Assembly: GCA_024278175.1 (NCBI GenBank)
Contig: JAJRTS010000006.1
Coordinates: 41,036 to 105,035 of the forward strand
DNA: 64,000 nt
Reading direction: 5' to 3'
Source of the DNA: Gemmatimonadales bacterium
GTDB lineage: Bacteria > Gemmatimonadota > Glassbacteria > GWA2-58-10
Part shown: piece by piece, positions 12,553 through 64,000 of the stretch
How the letters are laid out: every line of letters begins with the position of its first letter
Position numbering within the stretch: position 1 is the stretch's first letter
The notes under the pieces: generated by a model
Told to the model about the DNA's origin: nothing
What the model saw: the letters and a program-made list of their open reading frames with translations, nothing else
The model's database searches: none
Program-made: the position numbers and the translations under genes

Positions 12553-12587
12553 AGTGGACAGCAACCGATAAGTTGCGGCTCTGGTCA

Positions 12588-12731
12588 ATTATGATGATAT
12601 CGTAAAAAGTCCGCTTTGCCGATGGCAAAGTAGAAAGTTTCAGATACGAGGCGTGTAGATTTTGAGGAGCGAAGCGTACTTGCGCCTGCGCTGCAGTGAC
12701 GAGATAATCTTACGCAACGAAGTAGATGGAA
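12588..12731. repeat. ~140-bp conserved intergenic element, copy A (homolog at 63849-63988)
   Basis: Direct alignment to the window end over about 140 bp: tgatgatWtcRtaaaaagtc, ttgccNNNggcaaagta, gtactt, tgacgagata, cgcaacgaagtagatgga. Confidence 0.6.
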
Positions 12732-13103
12732 GCCATCAATTAATAGAAGTTATTTCAAAACCTCTTAGTAATTGGCTGAAGACAATCGAGTTAGTGGAAT
12801 CGATATTGGTCGATACCCCGTGAAGCTCAGGGCTTGTTTTTTGTGGTGGGGCGGGGTCAGTCCCGGGCCGCATGTCTGAGCCACAGCAAGGGTAGCGTGT
12901 AGTTGTCCCGGATCCCACCGGAGCTGCCGGAAAAAACATTGTCCGGCGTGCGATTCGCTTCCAGCGGGCCAAGCACACGGGAGTGGAGTTTTGCCGATGG
13001 CACACCGCCCGGATTAAAAAAACCACAAGTTTGTGCGAGTTCGGCCCGGAAAAGGCTTTTGCTCTACTTTTGGCCTCAAAAGTAGAAGTACTCTCTCGCT
13101 TTT

Positions 13104-14671: not shown

Positions 14672-14880
14672 GGGGCGTTGAAATAAAACTCTCAACGCCC
14701 TCGAATGAAATATTCTGCCTGGTTAGTTGTCAAGGGCAAAGCAAGCCGTTCCTTTTAAGAAAACTGCTACTCATGTTATTCCAAGTAAGTTACATTGCTT
14801 ACGCCGGCTCTCGGCCAGCAACAGCGAGGAACGGCCCTTGACAACCCAACTCCCATACTTTTGTTATTTTTCAACACGCT
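14672..14880 (+). mobile_element. MITE-like repeat, copy 2, with 7-bp direct repeat CCTGAGT on both flanks
   Basis: Terminal hairpin ggggcgttgaaataaaactctcaacgccc. Internal subrepeats gttgtcaagggcaaagcaagccgtt and aacggcccttgacaac. The end is tttttcaacacgct. CCTGAGT directly abuts both ends. Confidence 0.65.
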
Positions 14881-24178: not shown

Positions 24179-24385
24179 GGGGGCGCTCTCAATAAAACGT
24201 TCAACGCCCTTAAATTAAATATTTCATCCGGGCAAGTTGTCAAGGGCAAGGCAAGCCGTTTTTTACCGGTTCTGCTATTCGTTTTATTTCAAGCAGTTAG
24301 ATTGCTCCCGCCGGCTTTCGGTAGGCATAATCATGAACGGCCCTTGACAACCCCAACATCCATACTTTCGTTTTTTTCAACACGC
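24179..24385 (+). mobile_element. MITE-like repeat, copy 3, flanked by direct repeat TGTTTTA
   Basis: gttgtcaagggcaaggcaagccgtt at 24236-24260, aacggcccttgacaac at 24335-24350, and the end ttttttcaacacgct. TGTTTTA lies immediately before and after the element. Confidence 0.65.
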
Positions 24386-24426
24386 TTGTTTTACCTGTCA
24401 GGCAACCTGATCGCGAAGGGCGCTAA

Positions 24427-25891: not shown

Positions 25892-26504
25892 CGGGCGGAT
25901 GGGGAGCAAAAACATTGTCCGTCGTCTATATGACTGGGTACTGCACTGGGCTGAGACCCCCTATGGTCCTGTTGCGCTGTTTGTCAACGCGTTCGCGGAG
26001 AGTTCGTTTTTCCCGCTTCCGCCGGACCCGCTGCTGATAGCCCTTTGTATCGGCAAGCCATCGCGGGCTTTCAGGTTCGCGCTCTGGTGCAGTGTGGCCA
26101 GCGTGCTGGGGGGTGCGGCCGGTTACCTGATCGGCTGGGGAGTGTGGGAGGTGGTGGACCAGTATTTCTATCGCTGGGTGCCCAGTTTCACCCCCGAGGC
26201 TTTCGAGCATATCCGCGCTCTGTACGATAAATGGGATTTCTGGGTGGTGTTAACCGCCGGTTTTACTCCGATTCCCTACAAGCTGATCACGATCGGTGCG
26301 GGTGTGTTCGCGGTCAATTTTCCGGTATTCATGGTTGCCAGCGTGCTCAGCCGTTCGGCGCGGTTTTTTCTGGTAGCCTGGCTGATCCGCCGTTTCGGCC
26401 CCTCGATCACCGGTTTTATCGACCGCTATTTCAACCTGGCCACGCTGGTATTCATGGTGTTGCTGGCAGGCGGGTTCGTCCTGTTCAAGTACGTGCTGCA
26501 CTGA
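25863..26504 (+). CDS. YqaA-family / DedA-VTT domain membrane protein
   Basis: Conserved F.P.P. and VTT-domain pattern (FPLPPDPLLIALCIGKP). Four TM helices. Probable start is the Met at 25899. Confidence 0.6.
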   Translation: MSHRQQTADSGRMGSKNIVRRLYDWVLHWAETPYGPVALFVNAFAESSFFPLPPDPLLIALCIGKPSRAFRFALWCSVASVLGGAAGYLIGWGVWEVVDQYFYRWVPSFTPEAFEHIRALYDKWDFWVVLTAGFTPIPYKLITIGAGVFAVNFPVFMVASVLSRSARFFLVAWLIRRFGPSITGFIDRYFNLATLVFMVLLAGGFVLFKYVLH

Positions 26505-26581
26505 ACGGGGAAATCATCGGGCGCAGGCTTGCCAAAAAGCGGATAGGATTGTATTTTACAGCTCTTTTTCGAAGAAGATGT

Positions 26582-26659
26582 CGGGGCGTAGCGCAGCCCG
26601 GTTAGCGCGCGTGCTTCGGGAGCACGAGGTCGGGAGTTCAAATCTCCCCGCCCCGACCA
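26582..26659 (+). tRNA. tRNA-Pro (anticodon CGG), CCA encoded
   Basis: Cloverleaf: acceptor cggggcg/cgccccg, D-arm gcgc..gcgc, anticodon stem cgtgc/gcacg with loop ttCGGga, T-arm gggag-ttcaaat-ctccc, discriminator A plus CCA. Confidence 0.85.
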
Positions 26660-26667
26660 TAAATATC

Positions 26668-26720
26668 AAGGGTTTGCGAAGATTGCCGGCATCAAAGGCA
26701 TGGAGCGCAACCCTTTTTTT
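26668..26720 (+). terminator. putative terminator after tRNA-Pro
   Basis: agggtttgcg ... cgcaaccct stem followed by tttttttg. The long loop lowers confidence. Confidence 0.4.
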
Positions 26721-26942
26721 GTGCCTATATGTGCCAACTCGGGCCTCTTTCTATTCGTTGTCCTGCTGCGGCAGAAGTTTAACCTTTGAAAAATTGGGCG
26801 ACTGAATTGTGATGAGGGAGTTTTTCAGCTCACTCATTTTTGTGTATCAAAAGAAAATTAAGGGGTTGTTGCTTGTAACTGAATGATATAGTTGCAGATA
26901 TGCCCCTTGTATAAAAAATTTTGGAAAAAGAGTGGGGGAGTG

Positions 26943-26993
26943 TGAGGGGGAGAGAAAAGAACCTTTTTTAAAAGGTTTTGTCTCTCCCCCTCA
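26943..26993. terminator. palindromic hairpin downstream of the MFS gene (putative bidirectional terminator)
   Basis: gagggggagaga...tctctccccctc with an inner aaccttttttaaaaggtt. It lies 3' of the minus-strand gene that ends at 27029. Confidence 0.5.
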
Positions 26994-27028
26994 CTATTCT
27001 TTCAATTCTTTGATTAAATCAAAGGTTT

Positions 27029-28276
27029 CTATTTATCGGAAATAAGCAATGCAAGGCCCGCGGCAACCAGGCAGGCGATTCCCGCCGGAGCAAATGCCAT
27101 TAAGAATGAGCCGGTTGAATCCCTGACAAATCCGCCAAGCATCGGGCCGGCTATTCCTCCAATTCCATAAGCTGTAAAGACAAATGGATAGTTGGATGCA
27201 ACGTTCTTTGTGCCGAATAATTTAGCTGTTGCCACTGGAAACAGTGCAAAGTTGCCTCCAAAGTTAAAGCCAATCAAAGAAGCGTATACTGCAAGCATTA
27301 ACGGCGTTGTTCCCATCTTGTAGAATGTAAGCATCAGGAAACCCTGGATAACACACATGTAAAACAATGACATCTTAGGACCAACCCAGTCAGACACTTT
27401 GCCCCATACGATCCGGCCCAGGCCGTTAAAGATAGCATACCATGCCATTGCGGTTCCCGCGGCGGCTCCGGCGGCCGCCATCGGCAAACCTGAAGCTTGC
27501 AAAGAATCGAGCCCAAATAATTTGATAGTACCAATAACCATCAACCCGGCCATTCCACTAAAGGTAAATATGAGCCAGATTGTCCAGAAACTGGACTTGC
27601 CAAGCATCTTTTTCCAACTGAACTCAATAGATTTTTCAGCCTTTTTCTCTTTTTCAGCCTTTTTTTCAACTGGGCCCTCAACCTGATAGTCGGCAGGAGG
27701 ATCTATCATCCAGATTGAGCCGATAAGAACCATTACCATGAATGCAATTCCGTAATACAGGAAAACACTCTGGACGCCAAGCTTGTCGATCAAGCCAAAC
27801 CACGATCCGGCTACTTTAACCCAGATTGTTGCTCCAAAGCCGAATCCTGCAACCGCGAGACCTGAAACGAGACCTTTCTTGTCGGGAAACCAACTCATGC
27901 CAACAGCGATTGGAACGACATATGCCATGCCGATTCCAGCTCCGCCAATAATTCCTATCGTTATTAATTGGATGATAAAGGAATTACCCAGTAACGCTCC
28001 CAGGATATAACCGGCTCCAAGAGTAATGCCTCCGGCAATTGCTGTCCGGCGCGGGCCTACTCTCTTCATCCTGAGGCCCGAGAAAATCATCACTACGGCA
28101 AATGTAAAAAGCCCGGCGGAAAAAATGGCCTGGGTCTGCGGAGTAGTAAAGTTATAAGGTGCTTCCTTAAGCGCCCTGGTAAAAACCGACCACGCATAAA
28201 TGGCGCCTAAAGCCAGTTGAATCAATATTGCACCAAAAACAACAAACCATCTGTTAATAGTTTTGCTTTGTTCCAT
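27029..28276 (-). CDS. MFS transporter, OFA (oxalate/formate antiporter-like) family
   Basis: Twelve TM helices with a central hydrophilic loop. GC content is markedly lower than the neighbours (about 48%). Confidence 0.75.
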   Translation of the reverse strand: MEQSKTINRWFVVFGAILIQLALGAIYAWSVFTRALKEAPYNFTTPQTQAIFSAGLFTFAVVMIFSGLRMKRVGPRRTAIAGGITLGAGYILGALLGNSFIIQLITIGIIGGAGIGMAYVVPIAVGMSWFPDKKGLVSGLAVAGFGFGATIWVKVAGSWFGLIDKLGVQSVFLYYGIAFMVMVLIGSIWMIDPPADYQVEGPVEKKAEKEKKAEKSIEFSWKKMLGKSSFWTIWLIFTFSGMAGLMVIGTIKLFGLDSLQASGLPMAAAGAAAGTAMAWYAIFNGLGRIVWGKVSDWVGPKMSLFYMCVIQGFLMLTFYKMGTTPLMLAVYASLIGFNFGGNFALFPVATAKLFGTKNVASNYPFVFTAYGIGGIAGPMLGGFVRDSTGSFLMAFAPAGIACLVAAGLALLISDK

Positions 28277-54572: not shown

Positions 54573-56807
54573 ATGAGAAGTGGCCTGCTCTCTTTTATGT
54601 TGGCGGTAATTGTGTCGCTATCCTGGGCCGATAGCTCCAGCGCTTTTGTGACTGAGCTTCGCCAGCGCGGATATGCCCTGATTCCCACGCCCCAGCGGGT
54701 GGAGCTTGAGAACGGCGATATAACACTGGGCCCGGGCTGGGCGATTGAGGCCGAGGGCCGTGCCCGGGGAGATATCGCCGTGCGGCGGTTGACAGAGGGT
54801 GCACGGGAGCTGCACGGGCTGGTTTTAGCGGGTAAGGGCGAGGGCAAAATCGTGCTGAAAATAGCCGCTGGGACCGTTAAAGGCACGGATGATCCCGAGC
54901 TGCTTAAGCAGGCCTACAGGCTGACAGCTACGCCGGGCAGGGTGGAAATAACGGGTAACGATGCGCCGGGGCTGTTTTATGGCGTCCAGAGTTTTTTGCA
55001 GCTCCTGCGCCGCAATCCTGACGGCAGTCTCAGTCTGCCGGCGGGCACTATCACCGACTGGCCCGACCTTCAGCTTCGCTTCGCCCACTGGGACACCAAG
55101 CACCACCAGAAAAGAATCGAAACGCTGAAGCGGCTTATCGACTGGCTGGCTTATTTCAAGGTCAACATGATCGGTTTCGAGATGGAGGATAAGTACGAGT
55201 ACCCCAGCCACCCGATTATTGGCGCGCCGGGCGCATACACCAAAGAGCAGATGCAGGAGCTTACCCGCTACGCCCTGGAGCGCCACGTTCAGCTTGTCCC
55301 GGTTATCCAGAGTCCGGCGCACATGGCTTACGTGCTCAAGCACGAAGAGTTCGCCCACCTTCGCGCCGACGGCTGCAACTACCAGATCTGCATGTGTGAC
55401 CCCGAGGCGATCCAACTCATTTTCGACATGTTCGACGACATGATCGAGGCCACGCCGGGAGTGGAGTATTTCCACGTCTCCACCGACGAGGTCTATTTCG
55501 CCGGAACCTGCGACAAGTGCGAGCGGGAGTACAACGAAGAGAACCGCAGCCAGGCCTGGATCGATTTCGTGCTTAAGGCCCACGAGTTTCTTGCCTCCCG
55601 TGGCCGGACGATGCTGGCCTGGGTGGAGTACCCGGTGCTGGCCGAGCATATCCTCCAGTTGCCGCCGGATTTGATCGACGGGGTGATGGGCGGCGACCAG
55701 GATTTCCTCGATATGGAAAAAGCTGTCGGGATCAGGCAACTGGCCTACAGCAGCACCCAGGGCTCGGAGTTCCTGTTCCCCAACCATCTGCCTACAACTT
55801 ACCGTGGCCGCTATACGCGGGGCAGGGTGGAGGGCAACGTGCAAACCGTGCGCAGGGGACTGGCCATGGGGGCCAACCCGATTGGCTCGTTCGCGGCCGC
55901 CTGGGACGACTCCGGCCTGCATGAGGAAACTTTCTGGCTCGGCTGGGCCTCTGTAACCCAGTACGCCTGGACCCACCTGACACCCACTCCGGAGCAGACC
56001 ACGGCCGATTTCATGGATGTGTTTTATGGACCCGGCCATCAGGATATGCTGGAGGTCTACAACCTGCTTGAGCAGGGCGCGCGCTTTTTCGAGGATGGCT
56101 GGGAATCGGTTATCAGCTCCGAGCGCAATCCGGGCTACGGGAACAGTGATGGTAAGGGTATCCATACCGAGCGCTACGACCAGTTGCTGGTGCCGCCCTC
56201 GCTCCCCGATCCTGCCGACCTCGCTATCGAATCCGTGTTCAGCACCAGGTATGCCGGAAGGGTTGAGCAGGCCCGCGCCCTGCTGCCGGAGAGCGACAGG
56301 CTGATCGCTCTGCTGAACCGCAACATGACCAGCCTGTCTCGCAACCGCTACAACCAGGAAGTATATTTGAGTATCGCCCAGCTTGAACGACACTTTATCG
56401 AAACTCTGCTTGAGTTGGACGAGACCGAGCGTTCGCTGATCTCGGCCTCCGAAGCCGCGGCGAAAGGGAATCACGGCCGGGCGGTGAACTATATGGTGGA
56501 GGCCAACAACTCCGTGGCCGCTCTGCTGGAGAGGCGCGAATGGATGTGGAACAACCTGACGGAGGTCTGGGAAAAAAGCCGCTACGAGAAGGGTCGGAGC
56601 GTGGACGGGCGGAAGTTCGTGCACGTGCTTGACGATCTCAAGGACCACTGGGCCGACCGCCGCCGTGGCCTGGACTATATGATGGCCCCGTTCCAGCGCA
56701 TGCAACTGCCCGCCTGGCGCGGCGCTCTGGTGAAAATTATCGACTCCTACGCCGCCGCCCACGGCGTGCCCGTGCGGGGGCTGGCTGTTCCCCGGCTGGA
56801 GGACTGA
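54573..56807 (+). CDS. GH20-like glycoside hydrolase (beta-N-acetylhexosaminidase-type catalytic domain), secreted, paralog 1
   Basis: Signal peptide, an N-terminal GH20b-like domain, and a TIM barrel beginning ITDWPDLQLRFAHWD. Shares the same 744-aa length and domain order with the next gene. Confidence 0.5.
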   Translation: MRSGLLSFMLAVIVSLSWADSSSAFVTELRQRGYALIPTPQRVELENGDITLGPGWAIEAEGRARGDIAVRRLTEGARELHGLVLAGKGEGKIVLKIAAGTVKGTDDPELLKQAYRLTATPGRVEITGNDAPGLFYGVQSFLQLLRRNPDGSLSLPAGTITDWPDLQLRFAHWDTKHHQKRIETLKRLIDWLAYFKVNMIGFEMEDKYEYPSHPIIGAPGAYTKEQMQELTRYALERHVQLVPVIQSPAHMAYVLKHEEFAHLRADGCNYQICMCDPEAIQLIFDMFDDMIEATPGVEYFHVSTDEVYFAGTCDKCEREYNEENRSQAWIDFVLKAHEFLASRGRTMLAWVEYPVLAEHILQLPPDLIDGVMGGDQDFLDMEKAVGIRQLAYSSTQGSEFLFPNHLPTTYRGRYTRGRVEGNVQTVRRGLAMGANPIGSFAAAWDDSGLHEETFWLGWASVTQYAWTHLTPTPEQTTADFMDVFYGPGHQDMLEVYNLLEQGARFFEDGWESVISSERNPGYGNSDGKGIHTERYDQLLVPPSLPDPADLAIESVFSTRYAGRVEQARALLPESDRLIALLNRNMTSLSRNRYNQEVYLSIAQLERHFIETLLELDETERSLISASEAAAKGNHGRAVNYMVEANNSVAALLERREWMWNNLTEVWEKSRYEKGRSVDGRKFVHVLDDLKDHWADRRRGLDYMMAPFQRMQLPAWRGALVKIIDSYAAAHGVPVRGLAVPRLED

Positions 56808-56866
56808 CTTAACAACCTGATCATTATAATATCAAGATAACTCTTTATTGTGGAGAGCGGTAGCTG

Positions 56867-59101
56867 ATGATAACCAGGGTCAATATTCTGTTGAGTGCTC
56901 TGCTGCTTTGCCTTGCGCTGCCGGCTCAGGCCGCAATCACCATGACTCCCACCGACCTTCGCCTGCGGGGCTACAGCCTGGTGCCATCACCCCAGAAAGT
57001 CGAACTCAGGCAGGGCGATGTGGTGATCGACCAGAGCTGGGCGGTAGAGACTGAAGCCGATGGCCTGGCAGCCGGCTGGCTGGAAGAATGGGCGGAAGAC
57101 CTTCACGGGTTAACGCTGGCAGGCACCGGCGATGGCAAAATAACTCTGGCGGTGGACAAGCGGGCCGTGACCGGTGTGGACGATCCGGGTCGTAGCGCAC
57201 AGGCGTACAAGCTGGAAATTTCCGCGAGCCGGGTTACGATTACCGGCAACACTGAGCAGGGGCTGTTCTACGGCGTCCAGAGTTTTTTGCAGCTCCTGCG
57301 CCGTAAGCCCGATGGCCGCCTGTGCGTACCGGCGGGCAGCATTATCGACTGGCCGTCGCTGGAGCTGCGCTTTGTCCACTGGGACACCAAGCACCACCAG
57401 AAACGCCCCGAGACCCTGCGCCTGATAATCGACTGGCTGGCCTTTTTCAAGGTCAACGCGATCGGTTTCGAGATGGAGGACAAGTACGAGTTTCCCAGCC
57501 ATCCGCTGGCAGGTGCGCCGGGCGCTTATACCAAGGAGGAGCTGCAGGCTCTTACCCGCTACGCCCTGAAACGTCATATCCAGCTTGTGCCCCAGATCCA
57601 GGCTCCGGCCCATATGAACTGGCTGCTCAAGTACAAGCAGTACGAGCATCTCAGGGCGGACAATTCCAACTACCAGATGTGCATGTGCGACGAAGAGGGG
57701 ATGGACGTTATCCGTGACCTCTACCAGGACATGATAGACGCCACGCCGGGAGTGAAGTACTTCCACGCCTCCACCGATGAGATTTATTACGCCGGTATCT
57801 GCGACAAGTGCGGCAGGCCGTACAACGACGAGAACCGCAGTCTGTACTGGGTGGAGTACGCAAGCTGGATGCACCGCTGGCTGGCCGAGCGCGGCCGAAC
57901 GATGCTCTGCTGGGTTGAGTATCCCCTGCTGCCGGAGCATATCAGGATGCTGCCCTCGGGCATTATCGACGCGATCACCAACGGCAGCAAGGCCCCTGTC
58001 TGGATCGATGAGATGAACAAGGCGGGGATTCCCCAACTGGCCTATTCCAGCATGCAGGGCTCGGAGTTACTGTTTCCCAACCTGTTCCCGACCACCTACC
58101 GCGGCCGTCGCACCGAGGGCAGGCTGAAGGACGCTTCCACCACGGTACCGCGCGTGCTGGATAAGGGGGCGAACCTGTTGGGTACTTTCTGCGCCAGCTG
58201 GGACGATTCCGGTCTTCACGAGGAAGCGTTCTGGCTTGGCTGGGTGGTTGTCAGCCAGTACGGCTGGAACTATGCCTCGCCCGGTGTGGACCAGGCGGTG
58301 GCGGACTTTATGGATGTGTTCTACGGCCCGGACGCGGGTGAGATGGTGGAAGCCTACAAGCTGCTCGAGCAGGGTGCGCGCTTTTTCGAGGACGGCTGGG
58401 ACCGGGTAAAAAGCAAAGAGCGCGGACCCACCTACGGCAGCAGTGTAGGGCCGTTTCCTTACGACCGCCAGGACCAGACCCTGTCCATGCCCCAGTTGCC
58501 TGAGGGCGAAACCATCCGCGTTACACCCACGTTCGCGGAAAAATACCGCGAGCGGATCGACGGGGCCTGGGAGCAGAAAAGGCTCAACGACTCTCTGGTG
58601 GCCATGCTGATGCGCAACCTGGGCCGGGTGGAGCGCAACCGCTACAACCTGGAAGTGCTGCTCTCGCTGGCGCGCCTGGAGCGCTATTTCATGGATATGC
58701 TTACCACCATGGAGCAGGCGGAAAGCTCCATGGTCGCGGCCTCGGCGGCGGACGCGGAGGGCAAGCACGCCGCGGCCGTGGGACAGCTGGTGGTGGCCTC
58801 GAACAGCGTGGCGTCCCTGCTGGAGCAGGAGAGTGCGATGTGGAGCAACCTGGTCACCGTCTGGGAGAAGAGCCGTTATCCCAAGAACCGCAGCGTGGAT
58901 GGCCGCGAGTTCTTCCATGTGCTGGACGACGTGAAGGACCATTTCGCTGACCGCCGCAAGGGGCTGGACTACATGATGGCCCCGTTCCAGCGGATGGACA
59001 TCCCCGGCTGGAGAGAGCGTCTGGTGAGCTTTATCGACTCCTATGCCGCCGCCCACGGTGTGCCCGTGCAGGGGCTGGCCGTTCCCCGGCTGGAGGACTA
59101 A
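56867..59101 (+). CDS. GH20-like glycoside hydrolase, paralog 2 (tandem duplicate)
   Basis: Co-linear with 54573-56807 (GLFYGVQSFLQLLRR, FKVN.IGFEMEDKYE, identical C-terminal HGVPV.GLAVPRLED). Confidence 0.5.
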   Translation: MITRVNILLSALLLCLALPAQAAITMTPTDLRLRGYSLVPSPQKVELRQGDVVIDQSWAVETEADGLAAGWLEEWAEDLHGLTLAGTGDGKITLAVDKRAVTGVDDPGRSAQAYKLEISASRVTITGNTEQGLFYGVQSFLQLLRRKPDGRLCVPAGSIIDWPSLELRFVHWDTKHHQKRPETLRLIIDWLAFFKVNAIGFEMEDKYEFPSHPLAGAPGAYTKEELQALTRYALKRHIQLVPQIQAPAHMNWLLKYKQYEHLRADNSNYQMCMCDEEGMDVIRDLYQDMIDATPGVKYFHASTDEIYYAGICDKCGRPYNDENRSLYWVEYASWMHRWLAERGRTMLCWVEYPLLPEHIRMLPSGIIDAITNGSKAPVWIDEMNKAGIPQLAYSSMQGSELLFPNLFPTTYRGRRTEGRLKDASTTVPRVLDKGANLLGTFCASWDDSGLHEEAFWLGWVVVSQYGWNYASPGVDQAVADFMDVFYGPDAGEMVEAYKLLEQGARFFEDGWDRVKSKERGPTYGSSVGPFPYDRQDQTLSMPQLPEGETIRVTPTFAEKYRERIDGAWEQKRLNDSLVAMLMRNLGRVERNRYNLEVLLSLARLERYFMDMLTTMEQAESSMVAASAADAEGKHAAAVGQLVVASNSVASLLEQESAMWSNLVTVWEKSRYPKNRSVDGREFFHVLDDVKDHFADRRKGLDYMMAPFQRMDIPGWRERLVSFIDSYAAAHGVPVQGLAVPRLED

Positions 59102-59189
59102 CAAAGGTGGCACAGGTCGGCTCTAATAGCTCTTGCGTACATAGTGCGCAAGAGCTATTATTTTATGAACTAACGTCAAGGGAGGCGTC

Positions 59190-59723
59190 TTGCGAACAAC
59201 AGTGTATTGCCTGGTATCGCTGCTGGGGGCCGTGCTGATACAGGCAGGTTACGGGCAGCAGGCGGCGGAAGAGCAAGTTACCCCCACAGTACGAATCCGG
59301 CAGATAGCGGAGCCAACCGTGCTGCCAACTGACTCGATCACCTCCCTGACGGATACCCGCCCGCCGATTGACGAGTTTGGTACGCCCTACCTGTTGCCCC
59401 ATGAGCACCCGGACCTGCCCACCCATATAGCGGACTGGCTGGACGAGCAGAGGTATGTTATTCCGCAGGGATTAATAACAGAGACAAGCGGACGGATTAA
59501 TGTGGTTGCAGGAGAATTTGCGAATCCAGGGCAGCAAGATATAGCGGTCTGTTGTACTAACCGAGAGACCAGTTCGATTATCATGTTTTGGGGTAGTGCA
59601 ATTGACAGTATTTCCCAAATCGATAAAATGCCTACCAGCACCTTTGAAAGTGACGGGTTCAGTGATATCGAGCTTTTTTGCTGTTCGTACTACATATCCA
59701 AATATGTCGCAGGGTACTCATAA
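59190..59723 (+). CDS. small secreted hypothetical protein (paralog A)
   Basis: Signal peptide. Conserved block DEFGTPYLLP.E.PDLP...WL...YVIPQG ... NPGQQDIAVCCTN ... IMFWG is shared with the next ORF. Low-GC region. Confidence 0.45.
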   Translation: MRTTVYCLVSLLGAVLIQAGYGQQAAEEQVTPTVRIRQIAEPTVLPTDSITSLTDTRPPIDEFGTPYLLPHEHPDLPTHIADWLDEQRYVIPQGLITETSGRINVVAGEFANPGQQDIAVCCTNRETSSIIMFWGSAIDSISQIDKMPTSTFESDGFSDIELFCCSYYISKYVAGYS

Positions 59724-60378
59724 TAAGATTATTGCAATTATGATATCGCTATGTCTCACAGTTGTTGTCTTGGATTTTTCAAATGTGTTTGCAGAAGTCC
59801 AAAACACCATAAGGAAGAACAGGGATCAGCAGGAAAAAGCTTCATCGCATCAGCAGAAGCTTACCATCGATGAATTTAATACTGATTATATTATCCCGGC
59901 TGAATTTCCGGACCTGCCCAGCAAAATCGTGCAATGGCTAACTGCACGGCAATTCGTAATTCCGCAGGGAATCCCGGAGTACATGGTGGATGACGTCTTG
60001 CCCATTAATGCCATCAAAGGTCGGTTTAGGAATCCAAATCAACAGGACTGGGCTGTATATTGTACTAATATAGATAGCGCTTGTATCATCTTGTTTTGGG
60101 AAGGAGATACTATCCAACCTGAGGTTTTATCCAGGGATCCTGATTCGGCTAGTACTTACAAGCCGGATGGCGAAAGCATATCTTGTTGTTTTTTTTATAT
60201 AAGCCCCGCCGGGGTGAAATTAATGCTCAGGCAATATGAATTGCTGAAATCTGATGGTGCTCTTGAACCGCCGCCCATTAACCATGACGGTATTTCTTTT
60301 GGAATATTGGACCAGGCAATTATATATATTTTATACAAATACAAGGGGAAATGGCTGAGCCTCGCTGGAACTGATTAA
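59704..60378 (+). CDS. small secreted hypothetical protein (paralog B)
   Basis: Start at Met 59704 (MSQGTHNKIIAIMISL...), with a signal/TM segment. Shares the DEF.T.Y..P.EFPDLP, VIPQG, NPNQQDWAVYCTN and ILFWEG blocks with paralog A. Confidence 0.45.
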   Translation: MSQGTHNKIIAIMISLCLTVVVLDFSNVFAEVQNTIRKNRDQQEKASSHQQKLTIDEFNTDYIIPAEFPDLPSKIVQWLTARQFVIPQGIPEYMVDDVLPINAIKGRFRNPNQQDWAVYCTNIDSACIILFWEGDTIQPEVLSRDPDSASTYKPDGESISCCFFYISPAGVKLMLRQYELLKSDGALEPPPINHDGISFGILDQAIIYILYKYKGKWLSLAGTD

Positions 60379-60404
60379 TATTTGTCAGTATTGAAAACCA
60401 GATT

Positions 60405-60830
60405 TCAGATATACACGGAACAATGCCAGTGGAGCGGAGTTCCGTGCAATTTAGCAGTCTTAAAGTAGTTTTTCAGCTGGTTTTTTTGCCAGGTTTTCTG
60501 GGCCTCATTCATTTTGTTGTAATTTATATCCACATTCTGGCCCCATCTGTGGTTCTTGTGGCCATCACCGTCCATTTTTCCACCAGTTTTGAATAATCCT
60601 CCCCACGGCAAACTCAGGTCGTTGACCCATAACCTGTTTTGTTCTTCTGTTGTTTCGCCGAAATTACCCGCCTCGTACTGCCTGCCGAACGCATCGGCCA
60701 CGCTCTTGATTGCCGCCACCGGCGGGGGCCTGCCCCAGTGCGAGTCGGGGTGTGCGCCGTCGTTGGTGTAGGTCTCTATGTACGGATGGTCAATAGCGCT
60801 CAGGTTTTCCATGGTCTTGCCAAATTTCAC
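60405..60830 (-). CDS. peptidase M15-like (VanY / endolysin-type zinc peptidoglycan peptidase) domain protein; possibly the 3' part of a frameshifted gene
   Basis: GHKNHRWGQNVDI fits the M15 H-x-x-G-x-A-V-D-I zinc-ligand signature. C-terminal PLHWH fits the E/P-W-H motif. The reading frame stays open for about 30 codons upstream of the annotated GTG and overlaps the end of the next ORF. Confidence 0.45.
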   Translation of the reverse strand: MKFGKTMENLSAIDHPYIETYTNDGAHPDSHWGRPPPVAAIKSVADAFGRQYEAGNFGETTEEQNRLWVNDLSLPWGGLFKTGGKMDGDGHKNHRWGQNVDINYNKMNEAQKTWQKNQLKNYFKTAKLHGTPLHWHCSVYI

Positions 60831-60862
60831 GTCAACGAAAAACGACCGGCTGCCGAACCCCT

Positions 60863-61609
60863 CTATGTTGATCGTAACTTTGAATCTCGAGCAGAAATCA
60901 GTGGCTGGTAAGTTGCGTTCACCGCCAGGCGGCTCCAGGGCAACTTGAATTCCAGGACCGGATTATTGCCGGGTGTTGAGCTGGCGGTAACACCCTGCTG
61001 AACAGTAAACGTACCCACCTGGCCTTGGTTCCGGCCGACAGAGTGGATGTGCCCGCCGTATGCCGCTCCCCGCACGTGCCCGATATCGACTGATGCGTGG
61101 GTACCCTTAAGGCCGGATATTTCCAGTAGCGCACACGGTGGGGCTGATTTTTTTGATGTTCCGCCCGGATGCTTAAGTATGATCGGCTCCAGCCTGTTCC
61201 CGGCATTTATCGCCAACCAGTTGAACATTACGATTGGTTGGTTCGGGCCGTTATCGACTTCCAGCAAAAGGTTGGTGATCGTATCCCGCGTCGTACGCAA
61301 TGTTCTGGAATGAGCGCTTAATTGCCTGGTCTGCTCGTTATTTTTCCCGATTCCTGTTGCCATCCGGCTGAGTTCCTGCGATAAACCGGCGCTTTTGTTG
61401 AGCATGATGCGCGCCGCGCGGTTTATTTTGTCTTTCCCACTGGCAAAGGAACCGCCGGTAGTGTCACTCAGCAGCGTATCGGCTCCGCGTTGCATGTCCT
61501 GCATGACTCTCTTGCTGCTGGAGTCGTTCTTGCCATAGTTTATCATAATACCATCAATTTCGAGCGCTTTGGTCCATATTTGCCTGAATAATTCCATTGC
61601 TCCCCTCAC
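60863..61609 (-). CDS. hypothetical protein; possible N-terminal part of a frameshifted toxin/peptidase gene
   Basis: The ORF ends within the region where the downstream frame is still open (about 90-nt overlap). Contains HASVD...GGHIH. Low-GC region. Confidence 0.35.
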   Translation of the reverse strand: MRGAMELFRQIWTKALEIDGIMINYGKNDSSSKRVMQDMQRGADTLLSDTTGGSFASGKDKINRAARIMLNKSAGLSQELSRMATGIGKNNEQTRQLSAHSRTLRTTRDTITNLLLEVDNGPNQPIVMFNWLAINAGNRLEPIILKHPGGTSKKSAPPCALLEISGLKGTHASVDIGHVRGAAYGGHIHSVGRNQGQVGTFTVQQGVTASSTPGNNPVLEFKLPWSRLAVNATYQPLISARDSKLRST

Positions 61610-61801
61610 GGTGCGCGGATCAGTTTACCTTGCGAATCTTTTCGCGCTTAAAATAACACCGTAAAGGGCGCTTGTCCAGCGCAACTGATTATATAATATT
61701 AACTTAGGCGCATTCTGGTAAAATATTTTTTCTGTGCGGGTGCGCTGAACAGGCAAAAATATCAATTTTGCGCGGTGGGGGCGGCAGGGGGCCAGGAGGC
61801 C

Positions 61802-62923
61802 TTAGTGGCGAAGGTGGCGGATGCCTTCGGAGACCTCGAATATCAGGGTCTGGATGATACTTGCCAGTGGGATCGAGATGATCATGCCGATGATGCCCAG
61901 CATTTTCGCGCCCAGGATAACCGCCAGCAGCACGATCAGCGGATGCACGTTCACCGAGCGGCCCAGCAGCACCGGGACCAGGTAGACGTTATCTACGAGT
62001 TGGGCGAAAGCCAGCACGCACACGATTGCCAGCACCGGCCCCCAGTTCGGCGCCACCGTACCGGCGAACTCCGGGAACTGTGGCAGCAGCACGTATTGCA
62101 CAATCGCGACCAGCAGCACGGGTATCGCGCCGATAGCAGGGCCCAGGTAGGGGATGATGTTAAACAGGCCCACCACTATCGCCAGGAACACCATATAGTA
62201 AAGCGGCTGGAACAGCAGCCCCACCACGAAAAAACCGGCCAGGGCGCACAGGCCCACCACCAGCGACTCGATCAGCTTGGCGCGGATGAAGCTGCCGACG
62301 ATCTGGTTGATTTTCTGGTGGATGTTCAGGCTCATCTCAAAATAGCGGTTCGGCAGGAACCCGATCAGGGCGCGCTTGATCCTGTAACCGTCGAGCAGGA
62401 AAAAGAACAGCGCCAGCGGCACTATCGCCATCCAGGTCAGCACGGTCCCGAAAGTCGCCCCGGTAAACAGCAGCGCCTCGCGAATCTTGTCCTGGGCCAT
62501 GCTCAGCAGCCGCTGGCCGAAATCGAAACGGTCCAGGCCGAAGCTGCTTTCCAGTTCGCCGATCCTGCGGGTGATCTCGTCGTTGATCATGCTGCTGTAA
62601 AAATCGAGGCGGCTGGCGAAATCCTCGTATTCTCCCAGCACCAGATTGCTCAGCAGCATACCCAGCATCACTGCCGTGAACGCCAGTGCAAGCATAACGA
62701 TCAAGATCGCCCAGGAGCGGCCGAGACCGTGGCGTTCGATGTAATCGACCGCCGGCGAGAAGATGAAAACGAAAATCAACGCGAGCAGGAACGAGGAGAG
62801 CAGGCCAGGAATCCAGAGCAGCACGGAGATAAGCAGGATGGCGCAGAACGCCAGCACACCGAGCTTGAACGCGGGCCGGAAGATGAGCGGTGAAGATTTA
62901 CTGCTCTCCAGGGCAATCATCAC
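61802..62923 (-). CDS. AI-2E family transporter (PerM/TqsA-like, formerly UPF0118)
   Basis: Eight TM helices and the conserved C-terminal LGIIGMIISIPL region. ATGA overlap with the upstream gene. Confidence 0.8.
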   Translation of the reverse strand: MMIALESSKSSPLIFRPAFKLGVLAFCAILLISVLLWIPGLLSSFLLALIFVFIFSPAVDYIERHGLGRSWAILIVMLALAFTAVMLGMLLSNLVLGEYEDFASRLDFYSSMINDEITRRIGELESSFGLDRFDFGQRLLSMAQDKIREALLFTGATFGTVLTWMAIVPLALFFFLLDGYRIKRALIGFLPNRYFEMSLNIHQKINQIVGSFIRAKLIESLVVGLCALAGFFVVGLLFQPLYYMVFLAIVVGLFNIIPYLGPAIGAIPVLLVAIVQYVLLPQFPEFAGTVAPNWGPVLAIVCVLAFAQLVDNVYLVPVLLGRSVNVHPLIVLLAVILGAKMLGIIGMIISIPLASIIQTLIFEVSEGIRHLRH

Positions 62924-63848: not shown

Positions 63849-63988
63849 CGATGATTTCATAAAAAGTCATATTTGCCAACGGCAAAGTAAAAAGCTCCGG
63901 ATGCAAGGCGCGAAAATATCGAGCAATAGAGGTGTACTTAAAGGCACTCCGCAACTGACGAGATATGTAGCGCAACGAAGTAGATGGA
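63849..63988. repeat. ~140-bp conserved intergenic element, copy B (homolog of 12588-12731); may continue beyond the window end
   Basis: Aligned with copy A over its full length, including ttgccaacggcaaagta and cgcaacgaagtagatgga. Confidence 0.6.
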
Positions 63989-64000
63989 CTTTTTACAAAA

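Follow-up and report, generated by a model that had tools for sequence, protein, structure and literature searches.

A probable MITE-like mobile element with a conserved single-strand fold, common to distant bacterial phyla

Background

Nezha and Correia are among the MITEs of bacteria. REP/BIME and ERIC repeats are thought to be transcribed and to affect mRNA ends, and REPs, which measure 20-40 nt, are RAYT-dependent. PATEs of the IS200/IS605 type have no terminal inverted repeats, generate no duplications and insert 3' of a fixed tetra- or pentanucleotide. Integron attC sites possess R''/R' core sites (RYYYAAC...GTTRRRY) and a variable centre, and are found in cassette arrays.

A further MITE, Chunjie of Geobacter uraniireducens, is 178-235 bp long, with 21-bp TIRs and 9-bp direct repeats (PMC3184786, PMC10969869), and about 98% of MITE clusters are confined to one genus (PMC11602168). 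Among the mobile/repeat sequence candidates of Narunsky et al. (2024) is MRSC-65-2, a single long stem with a UYCCGG repeat, often found in dozens of copies per genome; candidates of this type were judged selfish, possibly acting as DNA (PMC11109978).

The element described here was found in two copies (A and B) in a window of 64,000 nucleotides (64 kb), the whole stretch analysed, from contig JAJRTS010000006.1 of a Gemmatimonadales bacterium. As is typical of MITEs, it is shorter than 600 bp, non-coding, bounded by terminal inverted repeats and target-site duplications, and present in multiple copies and at filled/empty sites. Its sequence suggests that it is probably a MITE-like mobile element with a functional folded core resembling a bidirectional terminator.

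The two copies in the window

A first-pass annotation had reported two look-alike stretches, at 12588-12731 and 63849-63988, aligning base for base. The resemblance is real and lies on the same (+) strand, but the identity over the aligned region is 76%, with a few small indels. The 18-mer CGCAACGAAGTAGATGGA has 2 sites in the 64 kb, even at up to 3 mismatches (0.07 expected), and the 30-nt pattern TAAAAAGTC-N3-TTTGCC-N3-GGCAAAGTA matches only copies A and B in the window (0 expected). Both copies were also recovered by a covariance model built solely from foreign relatives (26 copies), copy B at 63888-63998 (71.1 bits, E 3e-17) and copy A at 12615-12743 (57.2 bits, E 2e-13), the third-best match in the window reaching only 15 bits.

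The element, of about 145-175 bp, consists in order of X (left terminal repeat), a short spacer, Y, a core of about 95 nt and Z (right terminal repeat). X and Z are terminal inverted repeats of about 18-20 bp, Y is an inner direct copy of X, and Z is complementary to both; Y pairs with Z, with a conserved internal loop in this pairing, and so closes the core hairpin (stem P1).

Copy A extends over 12593-12736 on the + strand, like all the parts that follow, and is flanked exactly at its boundaries by a direct repeat, the left (CAATTAT, 12586-12592) and right (CAATTAA, 12737-12743) target-site duplications. Its X, GATGATATCGTAAAAAGTCC (12593-12612), corresponds to the first shared segment of the initial alignment and is complementary to the Z of intact relatives, whose reverse complement reads GATGGCTTCGTAAAAAGTCC. 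The X-Y spacer, GCTTTGCC (12613-12620), makes with the start of Y a ttgcc-gat-ggcaa hairpin. The ttgcc-N3-ggcaa stem had indeed been correctly seen in both copies; it is a sub-family feature, confined to A, B and the relatives L065 and L089, and not family-wide. Y, the 5' strand of P1 (12621-12637), was delimited by covariance-model alignment and by regex comparison of X, Y and Z. The folded core (12638-12730), which rests on the model score and on family covariation, runs from UUCA-GA-UAC-GAGGCG through a variable stem and an apical hairpin that differs from the consensus GGCGUAC/GUACGCC to CGCAACGAAGUAGAUGGA. Z is reduced to a remnant, AGCCAT (12731-12736), identified by covariance-model alignment and comparison with L065 and L089: about 10 nt (CUUUUUACG) are deleted directly 5' of it, leaving a 10-position gap against the model's cuUUuuCaac, and the closing stem of copy A is thereby short of CUUUUUAC in its 3' strand. 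A glycosyltransferase gene lies on one side of this copy and a Gfo/Idh/MocA oxidoreductase gene on the other.

Copy B starts at 63850. Its X, GATGATTTCATAAAAAGTC (63850-63868), was assigned by its match to Z (12 of 15 positions agree with the reverse complement of the visible part), and is followed by the spacer (63869-63877), by Y as the 5' strand of P1 (63878-63894, covariance-model alignment) and by the folded core (63895-63988, carrying the 71.1-bit match), whose minimum free energy is -39 kcal/mol (z = -2.75). The window ends inside the right terminal repeat, of which only the start, CTTTTTACAAAA (63989-64000), is visible, and the match was flagged as 3'-truncated.

The variable stem shows a compensatory difference between the two copies (AGAUU/AAUCU vs AUAUC/GAUAU), and the apical hairpin is off consensus in both. 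They score 57-71 bits, against 110-140 for typical family copies, and their closest relatives, L065 and L089, are both intact. Because they are only 76% identical to each other, the window copies appear to be old, and both are eroded or cut off. The gtagATGGA that ends both stretches had been proposed as a start-codon context; its ATG sits in a conserved paired segment, GUAGAUGG opposite CCAGAUAC, and is not a start codon, since the sequence 3' of it is not conserved.

At the left end of both copies (12594-12630 and 63851-63886), the - strand carries a small hairpin followed by a T-run, resembling a terminator, and a simple scan placed a -35/-10-like pair facing outwards in the same intervals. 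An outward promoter was discarded as a family feature: the - strand sites are present in the window copies and, by eye, are not conserved family-wide. In the relatives L003 and L005, an additional small hairpin lies between the A-tract and the core, in the 5' strand of the closing stem, at the same place as the ttgcc-N3-ggcaa hairpin of the window copies.

The window holds other features. A separate intergenic repeat of about 190 bp, presumably the first of the repeated elements in the first-pass annotation, occurs in three copies (1947-2135; 14691-14880, reverse; 24223-24386, reverse); it starts with AGCGTGTTGAAAAATAA, carries GTTGTCAAGGGCCGTT and AACGGCTTGCCTTGCCCTTGACAAC as an internal inverted pair and closes with a GGGGCGTTGA...TCAACGCCCC hairpin, and its GCGTGTTGAAAAA start resembles the X of the element's commonest sub-family. 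Positions 54909-59102 are a tandem duplication with a unit of about 2.29 kb and halves 71-78% identical, probably two adjacent paralogous genes. After a tRNA gene (26582-26656, 65 bits), the G+C content falls to 0.46-0.52 (26000-28000), with a strong hairpin nearby (26937-26999), and this region could be an integration site or an island boundary. A second low-G+C stretch (0.47-0.53, 59000-62000), just upstream of copy B, includes two paralogous ORFs (59190-59723 and 59596-60378) with the common motif PDLP..I..WL.

Relatives in other genomes

The species scan, performed with the exact 18-mer on one genome per species, gave 22 loci, about 17 of them with the whole element. The carriers are Smithella, Syntrophobacteraceae and other Thermodesulfobacteriota, Glassbacteria, Binatia, Aminicenantes, Omnitrophota, Selenomonadales, a Pseudomonadota MAG, Paceibacterota and two Saccharibacteria, and the copy number per genome is low in this set. 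The metagenome scan used the pattern AGGCG-N50-75-GCAACGAAGTAGATGG and returned at least 120 loci, most of them genuine. When the covariance model was applied to the fetched DNA, 107 + strand copies were obtained (37-142 bits), some of them without the exact 16-mer. As the metagenome sample was ascertained on AGGCG and the 16-mer, the invariance of the loops is inflated; they vary in copies recovered by the covariance model alone. The similarity, first noticed at two sites, thus extends to more than 100 relatives from genomes and metagenomes in more than 10 bacterial phyla. Scans of viral contigs and of 72,556 plasmids for the element gave zero matches.

At the gathering thresholds of Rfam 15, the window and 13 loci with complete copies yielded tRNA only, and at E<=10 the surroundings of copy A and of complete copies yielded noise only. 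A literature search by sequence strings of the element returned unrelated primers only. Several known classes were considered and rejected: a C/D-box RNA, whose sole support was a 15-bit noise match; a hammerhead core (CUGACGAG...GAA), as the stretch belongs to the variable stem in relatives; a JUMPstart/ops element, suggested by the position of copy A in a polysaccharide gene cluster, as conservation of the GGCGGTAG-like stretch does not extend to copy B; and a small-peptide or toxin gene, as no reading frame is conserved, stem lengths varying by non-multiples of three. To our knowledge, the core does not resemble 6S, SRP, 5S or Y RNA.

Fold, strand and selection

In the 107-sequence alignment, 92.1% of the cells are paired, against 70.8% after shuffling; double changes occur in 37 of the 41 pairs, and the covariation score is 0.561, against 0.18 for shuffled alignments and at most 0.089 with partners slid. 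Fitting of this alignment to the covariance model favours structure, but the margin is very large nonetheless. The suspicion, raised from the two window copies, of an RNA-like structure with pairing-preserving changes is thus borne out on the family alignment, as a conserved, covarying single-strand fold of the + strand.

The core folds into a long and irregular rod-shaped hairpin whose loops hardly vary (CCA-GA-UAC-R-AGGCG facing GCAACGAAGUAGAUGG). From the outside inward, it is composed of the outer stem, the A5GG/CCU5 stem, CCA-GA-UAC opposite GUA-GA-UGG (a tandem G·A motif), an asymmetric loop with RA opposite GAA, a GCGC/GCGC stem, a variable stem with more GA/GA loops and an apical GGCGUAC-loop-GUACGYY hairpin. 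The hairpin is about 110 nt long and its A5GG/CCU5 frame is conserved, the A-tract/U-tract pairs that frame it being A-U in 67-90 of the 107 sequences.

Over all stems, G·U outnumbers A·C by 319 to 75, and two apical pairs hold 91 G·U and zero A·C; such an excess indicates that the + strand folds, as RNA or as single-stranded DNA. It was seen for the inner stems in every class of neighbour-gene orientation. In the outer P1, G·U (28) shows no excess over A·C (21).

Selection was examined on copies at orthologous sites. At the lipoyl synthase (lipA) locus, compared in six lineages, the element has an identity of 0.79-0.94, against 0.45-0.65 for the third codon positions of lipA. In seven other diverged orthologous pairs, the 88 nt 5' of the 16-mer, which lie upstream of this ascertained segment, are 0.81-0.99 identical, against 0.48-0.77 for adjacent third positions; three near-identical pairs were uninformative. 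As the orthologous copies have changed less than the third codon positions beside them, they are under selection and not decaying relics. The core appears to be kept by selection as a folded single strand, and it matches no Rfam 15 family.

Termini and insertion sites

At the exact ends, X agrees with the reverse complement of Z in 10-14 of 15 positions, and X is placed outside the core fold. Since the mismatches between X and Z are of the A·C type and P1 is without G·U excess, the ends act as DNA repeats and not as RNA helices. Direct repeats flank the X/Z boundaries in L022 (CATAACAT), L065 (CAGATAT), L087 (ATAAGGAA), L089 (CAGGATT), L116 (ACTATTT) and window copy A (CAATTA(T/A)), and L093 has one too. 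Boundary repeats of at least 5 nt were found in 7 of the 14 copies of the window sub-family, where 0.93 were expected (permutation test, P<0.0002); they measure 5-8 nt, or 7-9 bp with the element ends as placed here. The apparent duplication length is unequal between sub-families: many copies are without a clear duplication, above all in the commonest sub-family, in which repeats are only 4-5 bp (TTAG, GCAA, TTCGA, TTAAT) or absent.

In L022, the element splits the overlapping stop of fixC and start of fixX, and the junction is duplicated, so that both genes are intact. The syntenic Saccharibacteria contigs L018 and L020 carry the element at differing sites (gap/rpiB vs between two transketolase genes), the counterpart site being empty or differently organised in each. 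Seven contigs (L014, L043, L051, L070, L093, L094 and L116) hold 2-3 copies each, some in tandem, and such clustering suggests insertion beside or into existing copies. Two or three copies stand in tandem or nearly so at 13429-13968 of L093 (a contig shared with L104) and at 6830-7136 of L070, and in L116 a solo right end lies immediately upstream of a complete copy. No autonomous element sharing these termini turned up in the roughly 1 Mb of fetched DNA, in the 72,556 plasmids or in viral contigs; the additional terminal-repeat-like sites sought for this purpose in the fetched loci were few, weak or partial.

The first-pass annotation was right to link the two stretches to mobile DNA. They are not the end of a bigger element, however: every copy is a small unit complete in itself. 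Copy B, which had been thought to be perhaps one end of something longer, belongs to a family whose units have their own inverted termini and target-site duplications.

These termini have to be weighed against another reading, in which the family would be a free-standing small RNA gene of about 110-140 nt, trans-acting or protein-binding; it would have its own promoter and U-tract end and spread by ordinary horizontal transfer, its inverted ends would be the closing stem and its flanking repeats incidental. The strand-specific fold independent of neighbour orientation, the invariant loops with covarying stems, the purifying selection on resident copies, the few copies per genome in the species set and the lack of a transposase among the commonest neighbour families listed would all suit such a gene. 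It does not account for boundary direct repeats far above chance, for the duplicated junction within the overlapping gene pair of L022, for an X that lies outside the fold with A·C-type mismatches to Z and no G·U excess in P1, or for tandem and clustered copies; moreover, no convincing or conserved + strand promoter was seen. We regard as unlikely both the gene family itself and this account of its ends.

Genomic context

The neighbours of the element are unrelated housekeeping genes, and no protein is encoded within it. The 139 nearest neighbours represent 204 Pfam families and 150 further ORFs 218; the 25 commonest families listed for each set include neither a transposase nor any other partner. 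The sole recurring neighbour is lipA, and all its cases represent one orthologous locus. Three YhcG-type PDDEXK nuclease/DUF1016 proteins were found among the 150 ORFs near the element, too few for an association.

The orientation relative to genes is biased. Convergent contexts (20) exceed divergent ones (4), and between co-directional genes the strand that folds is more often antisense (30 cases) than sense (12). Of 92 copies, 48 have a convergent gene that terminates at their right terminus, and for 33 of these 48 the stop codon is no more than about 2 nt away from it; in the Saccharibacteria and in L013, the final codons and the stop of the gene even come from the right repeat itself.

A hairpin of single-stranded DNA, used by an HUH/Y1 or a tyrosine recombinase as in IS200/IS605-type PATEs, REP/RAYT systems and integron attC sites, would also fold on one strand, tolerating G·T and not A·C; tandem G·A motifs are stable in DNA too, copies do lie directly after ORFs, and no promoter was found. 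Such systems, however, do not make terminal inverted repeats with variable flanking duplications. By eye, the listed ends contain no RYYYAAC/GTTRRRY core sites and no cassette arrays, and the recurrent families listed for the 289 neighbouring ORFs include no Y1 transposase, RAYT or integrase. The preference for the strand antisense to co-directional genes (30 vs 12) also speaks against it, because this strand would usually be the leading-strand template and not the exposed lagging-strand template. Taken together, this explanation appears improbable.

Still less credible is a cis-regulatory leader or riboswitch for the downstream gene, which had been among the initial suggestions. Several copies do lie 8-30 nt 5' of a start codon, notably that of lipA in seven related loci, and X and Y could alternate in pairing with Z in the manner of an attenuator. 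Nevertheless, in 55 of 81 cases the gene that lies downstream uses the opposite strand, the element orientation is mixed, the neighbouring families are unrelated, the lipA cases are one vertically inherited locus, and some 370 nt separate copy A from the next gene. A riboswitch or leader class was also rejected for want of a consistent same-strand position upstream of a coherent gene set. Chance similarity or fragments of a duplicated gene, for which nothing speaks beyond the initial observation of two copies, can be dismissed in view of the statistics of the 18-mer and of the 30-nt pattern, the covariance-model scores, the family covariation and stem lengths that vary out of frame, with no reading frame conserved among relatives.

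Proposed mode of action

For the MITE-like element, the following course of events may be proposed. A DDE-type transposase, supplied in trans, would bind X and Z, and perhaps Y, and would cut in a staggered manner at A/T-rich sites, which in G+C-rich genomes would mostly be stop codons. Disruptive insertions would then be removed by selection, leaving the flush position at gene ends. After insertion, the core would be retained for what it does as a folded single strand, which is most likely RNA. With its A5GG...CCU5 frame, the hairpin would resemble an intrinsic terminator in both directions, and the element would be tolerated flush with gene ends; this terminator-like appearance fits both that position and its tolerance within compact genomes. 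The invariant loops imply a specific partner, and may be the binding site of a conserved factor.

It is also conceivable, though we would advance it only tentatively, that the core functions as an RNA, be it as a ribozyme or as the dedicated partner of a conserved protein of the cell or the transposon, and that it is moved between phyla in a minimal transposon shell and then kept by the host; if so, it would be a mobile non-coding RNA gene of an uncatalogued class.

Unlike the usual lineage-specific and internally neutral MITEs, this family occurs in phyla as far apart as Saccharibacteria and Thermodesulfobacteriota, its interior changes in the manner of a functional RNA, and its resident copies are held by selection. 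Should the core turn out to act as an RNA or as a portable terminator module, it would add a new class to the catalogued RNAs, exemplify a non-coding function spread by transposition and provide a marker of gene flow among uncultivated anaerobes. For annotation, the element accounts for intergenic islands in small genomes and for the "extra" codons with which some of their genes end.

Comparison with known systems

The element differs from integron attC sites in its conserved centre and in having no core sites (by eye), no arrays and no recurrent integrase, and from IS200/IS605-type PATEs in its terminal repeats and variable duplications. REP/BIME and ERIC repeats are likewise structured extragenic repeats at gene 3' ends, but they are lineage-restricted and without the element's core. 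With bidirectional intrinsic terminators it has in common a G+C-rich stem base, an upstream A-tract and a downstream U-tract, and a position directly after stop codons, often between convergent genes; its hairpin, however, is of about 110 nt with invariant internal loops, mobile and homologous across phyla.

MRSC-65-2 also combines a long covarying stem with many phyla, multiple copies and a mixed orientation to neighbours (PMC11109978). The element differs by the absence of the UYCCGG repeat in sequences inspected by eye, by other invariant loops, by its low copy number and by clear terminal repeats and duplications.

Bacterial MITEs are, like the element, small, non-coding and intergenic, with terminal inverted repeats, target duplications and a stable hairpin; they may sit inside operons and be mobilised in trans, as would be the element. 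It is probably not Chunjie, since the 18-mer, by which alone the two were compared, has no match in genomes of Geobacter species (one genome per species). In contrast to MITEs, its interior and not its ends is the most conserved part, with strand-specific compensatory evolution, and its resident copies are under strong purifying selection, which is unusual for a selfish repeat. It spans more than 10 phyla, whereas MITE clusters are nearly always genus-specific (PMC11602168), so that its cross-phylum breadth and its RNA-like constraint are the features that set it apart.
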